Shown in pieces: positions 41,058-44,419 of a stretch of 64,000 nucleotides of DNA (its first letter is position 1; every line of letters begins with the position of its first letter). The position numbers were made by a program, and so were the translations under genes. The DNA comes from Actinomycetes bacterium. Lineage in GTDB: Bacteria; Auribacterota; JAJCYG01. The notes under the pieces were generated by a model. That model saw nothing but the letters and a program-made list of their open reading frames with translations. It was not told the DNA's origin and made no database searches. The stretch is taken from assembly GCA_029263055.1 (NCBI GenBank), contig JAJCYG010000099.1:64083-128082 (forward strand), written 5' to 3'.

Positions 41058-41909
41058 TTATTTTCCCCAATCGCGGGCGTAGCGAAAGTCTCGGCCGATT
41101 GTTCGCAAGGAGAGTTTGGCGATGAGTGGGAGGCGGCGTTTGTATTGGGAGAGTTGGACTTTTCGTTGGATTTGGTCAATCCGTTCTGCTTCAAAGCCTA
41201 GTTCAATCAGTTCTTCCCGTGTTTGGCGTTCATCAACCAAATGGTAGAGAATCAAATCAGCTTCATCATAGGTAAAGCCTAATTCTTGTTCATCGCTTTG
41301 GCCTAACCATAAGTCGGCTGAAGGGGGTTTGTCTAAAATCGATGCAGGCACTTTTAAATGCTGAGAGAGTTGGCGTACTTGTCCTTTGTACAAATCTCCA
41401 ATAGGATTAATGGCTGAAGCCATATCACCGAATTGAGTTCCATATCCCAGTAAGAGTTCGGTTTTGTTGCTTGTGCCTAATACGAGTGCATTTTCTTTGG
41501 CTGAATAGTCATAGAGAATGGTCATTCGTTCTCGAGCCATTTTGTTTCCACGGCGTAGGGATGAGGCACGAGGAAAATGTTTGAAGTAAGCATTGATCAT
41601 GGGTGTGATCTCAAGGACAAAAGATTGCATTCCTGTTTTGTCTATGACTTGTTTGGCATCTGAAATAGATTCTTTGCTGCTTGTGGCATAAGGCATCAGA
41701 ATGCCTGTCACATTTTTAGGGCCTAAAGCTTTTGCGGCTAAAACAGCCACAAGCGCAGAGTCAATTCCGCCAGAGAGACCCAGAACCACTTTTGAAAAAC
41801 CAACTTTAGTCACTTCTTCACGGATGAAGTCGACTAAAATCTGTTCGACATATTTGGCATCAATAGTCAGCAGGTCAGAAAGGTTTTTTAAATTGTTCGT
41901 TTTGGACAC
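41058..41909 (-). CDS. nadE: NAD+ synthetase, synthetase (PP-loop ATPase) domain; probably the C-terminal half of a frameshifted glutamine-dependent NadE
   Basis: 283 aa; PP-loop [17 protein letters not shown]; GTG-started ORF overlaps the upstream C-N hydrolase ORF by 35 nt in the +1 frame; the overlap contains an A6 run. Confidence 0.75.
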
Positions 41910-42735
41910 GTTGAAGTTCTCTTAATGTGAGTTCAAATTTTTCATCTCGGAGCAATGGGTTTTGCGTGCGTATTCGAGTTAAGCTGTTGAGCGAAAGTGT
42001 GGCTGTGATCAAGTCTGTTTTATTTTCTTTGGCTTTAGCTAAAACTTTGCCTGTAGGATCTATAATTTCTGAACCACCCCAAAAGTGAACCCCATCTTCA
42101 AATCCAACCCGATTCACATAAAGTACAAACACGGTATAAAATTGAGCATAGAAACGGTTGAGTTGTTCCCATGTTTGGCTTGATTGGAGTTTGCCCTCTT
42201 TGCTAAGGCCTCGGCCAGGACTGCTCGAAGGAACAATTAAAAAGCTCGCTTTATCTAGAACAGCCGTATAAGGAAGCATAGGGTGCCACATATCTTCGCA
42301 AATTAAGACTGAAGAGCGGCCAAACTGAGTGTCAAAGGCGCGCATTCGGTCGCCTTGAGCCAAGTAACGTTGTTCGTCAAACAAACCGTAAGTTGGAAGG
42401 TATATTTTTCTGTGGATGTGCTTGAGTTTGCCTTTTTCAAAATAAGCTGTTGAGTTATAGAGGTGGGCATCATTACCTTGTTCGACAAAGCCAAATGCAA
42501 TTGAAATCTTTTTACTTTCACGTGCTAAGCGCTGGATTATTTTATCTTTTAAGGTAAGCGCCACATCTGTGACTTGATCTCTTAAAAAATAACCGGTTAA
42601 ACTTAATTCAGGAAAAAGAATTAACTGGGCTTTCTTTTTTTGTGCCGCAGCGATTTGTTCTAAGTGAATATCTAAGTTTTTATTTAGATTGCCTAGAGTT
42701 GGCTTGATTTGAGCGAGAGCTACATTTAACTTCAT
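41875..42735 (-). CDS. Carbon-nitrogen hydrolase (nitrilase superfamily) domain; glutaminase half of glutamine-dependent NAD+ synthetase
   Basis: 286 aa; C-N hydrolase catalytic triad context ([26 protein letters not shown]); directly followed by the synthetase domain ORF. Confidence 0.75.
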
Positions 42736-43352
42736 TAGTTTTTTCCTAGCTGTTTTAAATATTCAGTCGCTTCTTTATTCCACTTAGTGGAGTCTTTTGT
42801 TTTGCGATATTGCTCAAAATATTTTTTAGCTTTCTTTTTTTGACCTAGTTCAAAGTGAACTTTGCCTAATTGGTACATGGCATCCCAATCGTCTTTATCT
42901 GATTTCAGCGCTTTTTCAAAATCAACCCGTGCAGACTTTAGTTCGCCATTTAAAAAGAAGATTCGCCCTGAAGCATAAAAGTCTTCAGCTTCTTCCTCTT
43001 CTTCGATTGTCTCAAAGGCTTTAGTTTCTTCTTCAATATCTTTTTTAGCTGTAATTTCTGTTTTCTTTTTCTTTTTTTCTTTAACCGGTTCTTCCTCAAC
43101 TTAAGGCAGGGGTTGATTTGAGGCCAAGTCCATATAATCTAAATAGTTGTAGACCCAAATCAATCCAGCTAAGACTTCGCACAAAACCCCAATAGGGAGG
43201 CCGAGCGGATGATCGAGTAAAAAGAAGAGCCCCCCCACCAACATACAGTCCCAAAACGCAAGCGTGAGGGTCCAGCCACGCACCTTCTTGTCATAAAGAA
43301 GCTGCCCATACCCAGGAAACAAAGCCGGATGTTTTCTCAGAAATGCTTTCAT
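42735..43352 (-). pseudogene. Membrane-anchored TPR-repeat protein interrupted by an in-frame TAA (43101-43103); could be a pseudogene, programmed readthrough or a sequencing error
   Basis: ORF 43101..43352 (83 aa, two TM helices) continues in the same frame after the TAA: VEEEPVKEKKKK...AEDFYASGRIFFLNGELKSARVDFEKALKSDKDDWDAMYQLGKVHFELGQKKKAKKYFEQY... (two TPR motifs) ending at TAA 42735-42737, which overlaps the ATG of the C-N hydrolase gene (TAATG); the downstream part has no in-frame start codon until 47 aa from its end. Confidence 0.5.
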
Positions 43353-43402
43353 AAGGGGACCATTTTACCCCTTTTAATGACCTGACTCAATGGGAACTTT
43401 AA

Positions 43403-44146
43403 CTAGAGGTTTTCAAGATTTTCGATGGGGATGGCGTAGCTGATGCCAGTGGGCATTTTGAATTTTGTTTTGGATTGTGTCTCTTTAAAGTGCCCGCTAC
43501 TCATGATGCCTAAGAGCTTGCCGGTATTGGGGTCAAATACTGGACCGCCACTGTGGCCTTGATAGACCACGGCATCTAAATGAAAAATATTAAATTTTGA
43601 GATGAGGGCTTTTCTGATTTCAGGGCTCAGACCTTTTGTGGAGACAATAGGAATAATATTGGGGCTGATCGAGCTGATAATACCTGTGTGAGTGGTGGGG
43701 TGAAGTCCTAGTTGAATGCCGTAGGGATAACCTGTAAAGGCAATGCTATCTCCTTCACGTAGTTTTGTGGAGTCTCCTTTTTTAAGATAAGGAAAATCAG
43801 TTCCTTCAATCTTTATAATGGCTAAATCGTTTCGGCTGTTTTGTGAAACAACTTTAGCTGCGTAGCCTCGTTTTGTGGAATCTTTGTAAAGATAAACACG
43901 TAAGTAATCGAGTTGATTCTCTTGAGCAATCGCATCAATCACATGATTGGCTGTGACAATAAGTCCGTCCGATGAAATGAGAGCGCCTGTTCCATTAAAA
44001 AGAGAGCGAGGCTTACGTTTGATATGGAATGTGCCAACCGCAACCACAGAGGTCTTAATTTGTTCAATCACATCGGGAAGAGGTTCGGTTTCAGCTCGTG
44101 GTGTCCAGAAAGTAAGAATAAGTAAAGCGCTTAAAAGTTTTTTCAT
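43403..44146 (-). CDS. Trypsin-like serine protease (S1 family), secreted
   Basis: Catalytic His region LIVTANHVIDA, Ser region GHSGGPVFD; signal peptide MKKLLSALLILTFWTPRA suggests start at 44146 rather than track start 44266. Confidence 0.7.
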   Translation of the reverse strand: MKKLLSALLILTFWTPRAETEPLPDVIEQIKTSVVAVGTFHIKRKPRSLFNGTGALISSDGLIVTANHVIDAIAQENQLDYLRVYLYKDSTKRGYAAKVVSQNSRNDLAIIKIEGTDFPYLKKGDSTKLREGDSIAFTGYPYGIQLGLHPTTHTGIISSISPNIIPIVSTKGLSPEIRKALISKFNIFHLDAVVYQGHSGGPVFDPNTGKLLGIMSSGHFKETQSKTKFKMPTGISYAIPIENLENL

Positions 44147-44419
44147 TGGGTTGACTCTATCAACTCTTTTCACGTGTGTCAAAAACCCAAATGGAGCCGA
44201 TACGTTTACCTCAGGAACTGTGACGCCCCCTTTAATCAAAAGTGGAAGGGCCATCATATATTTCATTAAAGGTGGGAGTTTCTACTTTAGCGGCGTAGAG
44301 ATTTATAATAATGAAGAGAAGGGCTGAGGTTAAGGTAACCCAAAGCCAAAAACCTTTTTCTGGATGTGTGAACTTTGTAGAAAGAATTCAGTCCCTTTTT
44401 TGTTACAATACCGCAACTT

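Follow-up and report, generated by a model that had tools for sequence, protein, structure and literature searches.

Why does a reading frame close after 83 codons when the same frame then stays open for another 121? The stop could be a real mutation within one gene, an error in the assembled sequence, a site at which translation partly continues, or the boundary between two genes. We weighed these possibilities for a locus on the minus strand of the window, the whole 64,000-nucleotide stretch of DNA that was analysed. The answer that we consider probable is one gene with a genuine recent nonsense mutation, a loss-of-function (pseudogene) allele of a lineage-restricted accessory gene. We call it the TM-TPR gene, and its parts are as follows.

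43101..43352, minus strand: 5' part of the interrupted gene (83 codons and the premature stop TAA), coding for a basic N-terminus that carries a PGYGQLxY(G/D)KKxRGW motif and for a pair of hydrophobic helices (TM hairpin)
43101..43103, minus strand: premature in-frame TAA, codon 84, right after the second TM helix and at the start of the disordered linker
42738..43100, minus strand: 3' part of the interrupted gene, 121 codons, with a Lys/Glu-rich disordered linker (~40 codons), then two TPR motifs and a capping helix
42735..42737, minus strand: native stop of the full-length gene, a TAA that shares a base with the C-N hydrolase ATG (TAATG)

Read along the minus strand, the ATG at 43352 opens 83 codons that end at the TAA 43103..43101. 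Past this stop the same frame is open for 121 codons (43100..42738) and ends at the TAA 42737..42735. The final A of this second stop is the first base of the C-N hydrolase ATG (42735..42733), in the sequence ...AAAAACTAATGAAG... The original prediction had described this arrangement (a two-TM frame of 83 aa closed by an in-frame TAA, 121 further open codons, and a terminal stop overlapping the hydrolase start), and on the minus strand all of it holds. One detail has to be corrected. The T of the premature stop had been placed on the plus strand at 43103; it is a minus-strand base, the plus strand reads TTA at 43101..43103, and its base at 43103 is an A.

An open stretch of this length rarely arises by chance in such A-rich DNA: when the 363 nt are shuffled by mononucleotides, only 1 of 20000 shuffles is free of in-frame stops. 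The two TPR motifs that had been proposed for the downstream half are also borne out. It exceeds the Pfam gathering score of TPR_2 (40.3 bits, cutoff 27) and of five more TPR models: TPR_8 (34.7, cutoff 25.7), TPR_19 (33.9, cutoff 25), TPR_6 (33.1, cutoff 26.3), TPR_1 (31.3, cutoff 27.8) and TPR_11 (31.2, cutoff 26.8). The first half, 83 aa long, has no Pfam match at E values up to 1 and no NCBIfam match.

An AlphaFold2 model of the full-length protein, made from a four-sequence alignment (mean pLDDT 66.8), divides it into three parts. Helices at residues 22-45 and 51-79 form a hydrophobic hairpin. Residues 79-122 are modelled as a disordered Lys/Glu-rich linker with a pLDDT below 50. The TPR module follows as five helices (125-134, 138-151, 156-169, 172-184 and 193-203), for which the mean pLDDT of 10-residue blocks is 73-93 with this alignment of four sequences. 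The stop position lies at the boundary of TM part and linker, among the first linker residues. The N-terminus is strongly basic (K2, R6, K7, K22, K23 and R25; net charge ~+5) and the loop between the two helices is short. By the positive-inside rule, we infer that the linker and the TPR domain should face the cytoplasm.

What the second half lacks is a start. It had been predicted to contain no start codon until 47 aa from its end, and this is the case: the earliest in-frame ATG, GTG or TTG is codon 75 of 121, which leaves a 47-aa ORF (42735..42878). Two successive open stretches of one frame, each of at least 70 codons, occur at 15 sites in the window. We checked 12 of the other such sites, and at every one the second stretch offers a start no more than 11 codons past the stop (no more than six in real gene pairs); the TM-TPR locus alone has none.

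The missing start bears on a reading of the locus as two genuine genes, one for a small two-TM protein and one for a separately translated TPR protein. A single observation speaks for it, namely that the stop falls exactly between structural modules, at the start of the linker. Yet about 23% of the gene's one-step nonsense paths lie in the linker, and a hit there is unremarkable. A second gene would have to do without a start codon for most of its length, and all orthologues are fused, single ORFs. We give this reading next to no credence.

The orthologues just mentioned are few. When the joined halves were searched against ~5.8 billion proteins, P0001 (202 aa), P0002 (192 aa) and P0003 (186 aa) were the only homologues. 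Identity to the joined query is 57-60%, and in each of the three a single uninterrupted ORF spans 100% of the query. The 83-aa N-terminal part is 61-65% identical to their N-termini. The contigs that carry them come from one NCBI MAG (GCA_040960375.1) and several Logan assemblies. To compare gene order, three neighbours of the TM-TPR gene are needed.

43403..44266, minus strand: trypsin-like serine protease gene (HtrA-type, no PDZ match; Pfam Trypsin_2 2.6e-24), directly upstream, used as a synteny marker
41875..42735, minus strand: C-N hydrolase gene, 286 aa (Pfam CN_hydrolase 2.7e-47), directly downstream, apparently intact
41058..41909, minus strand: NAD+ synthase (NadE) gene (Pfam NAD_synthase 2.3e-85; NCBIfam PRK13980 352.7 bits against a cutoff of 255)

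The order protease, TM-TPR, C-N hydrolase, NadE is common to the window and the orthologue contigs, with one exception on the upstream side. The protease gene is present at the loci L005 and L008, and at L001 a Kdp operon takes its place. Because the homologues lie on contigs with the gene neighbourhood of the window, they are true orthologues. The C-N hydrolase is 75-80% identical to its syntenic orthologues and equal to them in length.

All three orthologues are thus single ORFs across both halves in the same neighbourhood, in agreement with the earlier proposal that the halves are, or once were, one gene. That proposal had named what would speak against it: orthologues that also terminate at this position and are followed by a downstream gene with its own start. 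We looked for this among the three and did not find it. All four genes, including that of the window, end in TAA, and all four proteins end at one alignment column.

The junction with the C-N hydrolase gene is less uniform. The TAATG overlap recurs at L005, and the other two orthologues have gaps of 1 and 9 nt. Hence the tight packing of the two genes is conserved and the exact overlap is not.

Which codon do the orthologues have in place of the stop? In the DNA alignment the window reads CCT TAA GTT, and the orthologues read CCC AAA TTA, CCT AAA CCA and CCC AAG CTT. If the sequences are instead placed in the ungapped register that starts from the conserved YLDY(L/M)DL, the orthologue codons at the stop are AAA, GAA and AAA. 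In either register, TAA is a single first-position substitution away from a Lys or Glu codon in every orthologue. The comparison with orthologues that had been recommended for this position therefore returns sense codons one base from TAA, and the premature stop is kept in none of the three relatives.

Apart from the variable linker, the DNA of the window is collinear with that of the orthologues. Repeats at the break are short and at chance level. Neither a mobile-element insertion nor a repeat-mediated rearrangement fits these two observations, and we rejected both. We also considered whether the Lys/Glu-rich linker is a hot spot for nonsense mutations. This is not supported: per codon, the linker has 0.56 one-step nonsense paths, similar to the 0.49 of the TM part and the 0.64 of the TPR part.

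The 3' half carries no second stop and no frameshift. In the TPR part, dN between the window and the orthologues is 0.155-0.205, compared with 0.132-0.180 between one intact gene and another. The other three sequences share 53 invariant TPR columns, and the window agrees with them at 45 (85%); leaving out each intact gene in turn gives 83-94%. Judged by these comparisons, the TPR half appears not to be measurably decaying, with the proviso that pS of 0.66-0.93 to the nearest relatives is saturated and a very recent relaxation would be invisible. An undecayed 3' half would mean that the lesion is young, or unreal, or that the second half is still used.

An unreal lesion would be a consensus base error. 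In that case the organism has a sense codon (AAA or GAA) at this position and makes the full-length TM-TPR protein, and the TAA exists in the assembly only. One substitution would then account for everything, and the 3' half would be intact and conserved as in the orthologues, as is observed. Moreover, exact look-ups, GTDB representatives and JGI metagenomes yielded no independent assembly with which the base could be compared. Against an error stands the condition of the rest of the window, which is densely packed with long intact ORFs: among its about 57 genes there is no other interrupted or frameshift-split one. The substitution also lies outside any homopolymer, in CCTTAAGTT, and is not of the usual error mode of long-read assemblies.

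The expected frequencies point the same way. Polished assemblies contain far fewer than one stop-creating error per 64 kb. Real nonsense alleles are normal at about 1 in 50-100 bacterial genes, and isolated ones are common in bacterial genomes. Because the rest of the window is clean and isolated nonsense alleles are common in bacteria, we prefer a real mutation over an error and infer that the base is real. A base error remains the main rival, though an unlikely one.

The third possibility is that the second half is still used through functional recoding. Partial readthrough of the TAA, or reinitiation behind it, would yield the 83-aa membrane peptide together with some full-length or TPR-only protein. 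Several features fit this idea: the 3' half has not decayed, a Pro codon (CCT) directly precedes the stop, and an SD-like GAGGAAG follows it. In Escherichia coli, a C-terminal proline slows termination.

The remaining features of the site argue against recoding. The stop is absent from all three orthologues and is thus not a conserved recoding site. Its 3' context is TAA-G, and a UAA with G behind it terminates translation efficiently. RNA structure downstream of the stop does not go beyond chance, with a minimum free energy of -9.3 kcal/mol for the 121-nt fold (z = 0.26); 115 of 200 shuffles give a fold that is as good or better. Reinitiation would meet no in-frame ATG, GTG or TTG for 74 codons. 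Close to the SD-like element there is just one start, a TTG that is out of frame and begins a +1-frame ORF (42950..43099). Its product is a Lys/Arg-rich 49-mer and not the TPR domain, since the ORF runs to 42950 and ends before the TPR repeats.

Nor does the window offer the means to decode TAA as sense. It contains no tRNA genes, and hence encodes no suppressor tRNA; Rfam, at gathering scores, finds no matches in it. A suppressor tRNA was rejected on these grounds. TAA is the major ordinary stop of the window: the 45 open frames of at least 200 codons end in TAA (20), TAG (16) or TGA (9). An alternative genetic code with TAA reassigned is rejected as well, given that TAA is the commonest terminator in the window, that the native stop is a TAA in the orthologues' column, and that there is no other internal stop. 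A programmed +1 or -1 frameshift at the stop or at the A-rich run downstream fares no better, as the +1 frame does not reach the TPR repeats and the orthologues read straight through and conserve nothing similar. The site has no slippery sequence.

Like known sites of programmed readthrough or recoding, the TM-TPR stop is in frame and has a long, conserved open frame behind it. It differs from them in being unconserved, in being a UAA-G and not a leaky UGA or UAG, and in having no downstream structure. We regard functional recoding as quite improbable. A particular form of it would be a real TAA that is tolerated through low-level readthrough or reinitiation at the Pro-stop and GAGGAAG, that is, a newly arisen, unconserved recoding in an orphan family; this we hold to be very improbable. 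If recoding were true, the cell would contain a free two-TM micro-protein and little full-length or TPR-only protein.

The original prediction had left nonsense mutation, readthrough and base error side by side. The first and the last of these stand, and they give the same sequence picture. Readthrough does not find support, in view of the TAA-G context, the lack of structure and the unconserved stop.

We thus return to a recent nonsense mutation in a single gene. The ancestral product would have been a protein of ~205 aa, composed of a two-helix membrane hairpin, a Lys/Glu-rich linker of ~40 residues and a small C-terminal TPR domain. Codon 84 (ancestral AAA for Lys or GAA for Glu) would have become TAA through one substitution at its first position, A to T or G to T on the coding strand. 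What leaves the ribosome now would be a membrane hairpin of 83 residues with the C-terminus ...NQPLP. The TPR domain would not be made, and the downstream 363 nt would no longer be translated.

The two genes that follow would presumably be spared. An AGGA lies 7 nt before the C-N hydrolase ATG, so the hydrolase is probably translatable without coupling to the TM-TPR gene. C-N hydrolase and NadE would still be expressed, by way of the hydrolase's own AGGA site.

A nonsense allele of this kind has all the marks of known pseudogenes with an 'internal stop': the stop is one step from a sense codon, the orthologues are uninterrupted, the remainder has no start and the context is intact. It does not differ from them in kind. 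The TM-TPR gene is special only in having no secondary lesions, and hence the event would be very recent or an artefact.

What does the gene do when it is whole? The C-terminal ~80 residues belong with the Pfam clan TPR (CL0020), as they pass several gathering scores (TPR_1/2/8/11/19) and are modelled as five helices. None of the curated NCBIfam TPR families is reached: PilW, YbgF/CpoB, PrsT, MamA, LapB and others all score far under their cutoffs. No function can therefore be transferred to the TM-TPR protein.

The N-terminal domain could not be assigned to a known family either. A profile of the N-terminal module, run with HMMER against 1.84 billion representatives, recovers the cluster of its own family and one marginal match, P0004 (E 8.5e-4). 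P0004 is itself a weak match to DUF5683 (PF18935), with 21.7 bits against a gathering cutoff of 26.7, and shares the motif order PGWGQNYKG...KG, TM, ...WIYSYLD. DUF6677 (PF20382) matches orthologues weakly over residues 10-77, with E values of 0.03 and 0.26; its cutoff is 24.3 bits, and the two scores are 15.3 and 12.3. Since these hints are sub-threshold, the likeness to the two-TM 'PGxGQxY...(K/R)G' modules of DUF6677 and DUF5683 would be one of resemblance only. By the searches made here, the N-terminal two-TM module (PGYGQLxYGKKxRGW ... WVYSYLDYLDL; 43104..43352, minus strand) appears to be essentially an orphan.

The family is very rare: 5.8 billion proteins contain 3 homologues, and in 1.84 billion representatives it forms a single cluster. 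When GTDB species representatives and JGI metagenomes were scanned with the TM-TPR alignment, no relatives came up. The collection of gene positions has no exact-protein match to the window's C-N hydrolase or to the 83-aa ORF. The nearest relatives of the C-N hydrolase among GTDB representatives are from Planctomycetota MAGs, are only 40-46% identical and have no TM-TPR gene upstream. For this last reason, the TM-TPR gene seems to be confined to a small uncultured lineage. The window has a GC content of about 0.40 and is apparently from a sparsely sampled lineage.

For annotation, the consequence is that the 83-aa ORF and the 363-nt 'intergenic' stretch are to be read as one interrupted gene, labelled as a pseudogene or internal stop, and not as a small membrane protein followed by a gap. 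The only functional hint for the TM-TPR family is its constant place just upstream of the genes for a probable two-subunit NAD+ synthetase. As a natural knockout, the allele tells us no more than that this organism, under the conditions in which it now lives, can do without the TPR domain. It is an ordinary case of gene interruption, in a family that is rare and uncharacterised, and it bears on no open question.

The downstream genes deserve a remark of their own. The C-N hydrolase matches the N-terminal half of the NCBIfam NAD+ synthase PRK13981 (7.7e-46), under the cutoff for the full-length protein. Going by this match, it is probably the glutaminase subunit of a two-subunit NAD+ synthetase. 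Glutamine-dependent NAD+ synthetase is usually a fusion; here C-N hydrolase and NadE (about 281-283 aa) are encoded separately, by genes with an overlap of ~30 nt (41058..42735, minus strand). L001 and L005 share this split and overlap, and L008 starts likewise until its contig ends.

On the other side of the TM-TPR gene, a consensus scan reports one promoter-like element.

43362..43390, minus strand: promoter-like TTGAGT-17-TAAAAT, with the -10 hexamer 9 nt before the TM-TPR ATG and no Shine-Dalgarno between

It is possibly the start of a transcription unit of TM-TPR, C-N hydrolase and NadE. In all four lineages a -10-like hexamer lies exactly 9 nt before the TM-TPR ATG, again with no Shine-Dalgarno between; it is TAAAAT, or TAAACT at L001. 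The regions concerned are 43350..43390 of the window (minus strand), 3895..3955 of L005, 948..1010 of L008 and 4956..5013 of L001. The short distance and the missing Shine-Dalgarno suggest that the mRNA of the unit begins with no leader or almost none.

The hexamer is moreover enclosed by an inverted repeat, AAGGGG-taaaatggt-CCCCTT (43355..43380, minus strand), that abuts the TM-TPR ATG. It may be what is left of a terminator of the protease gene, or else a regulatory hairpin. L005 has a counterpart of this repeat, GAGGG-taaaatagt-CCCCTT.
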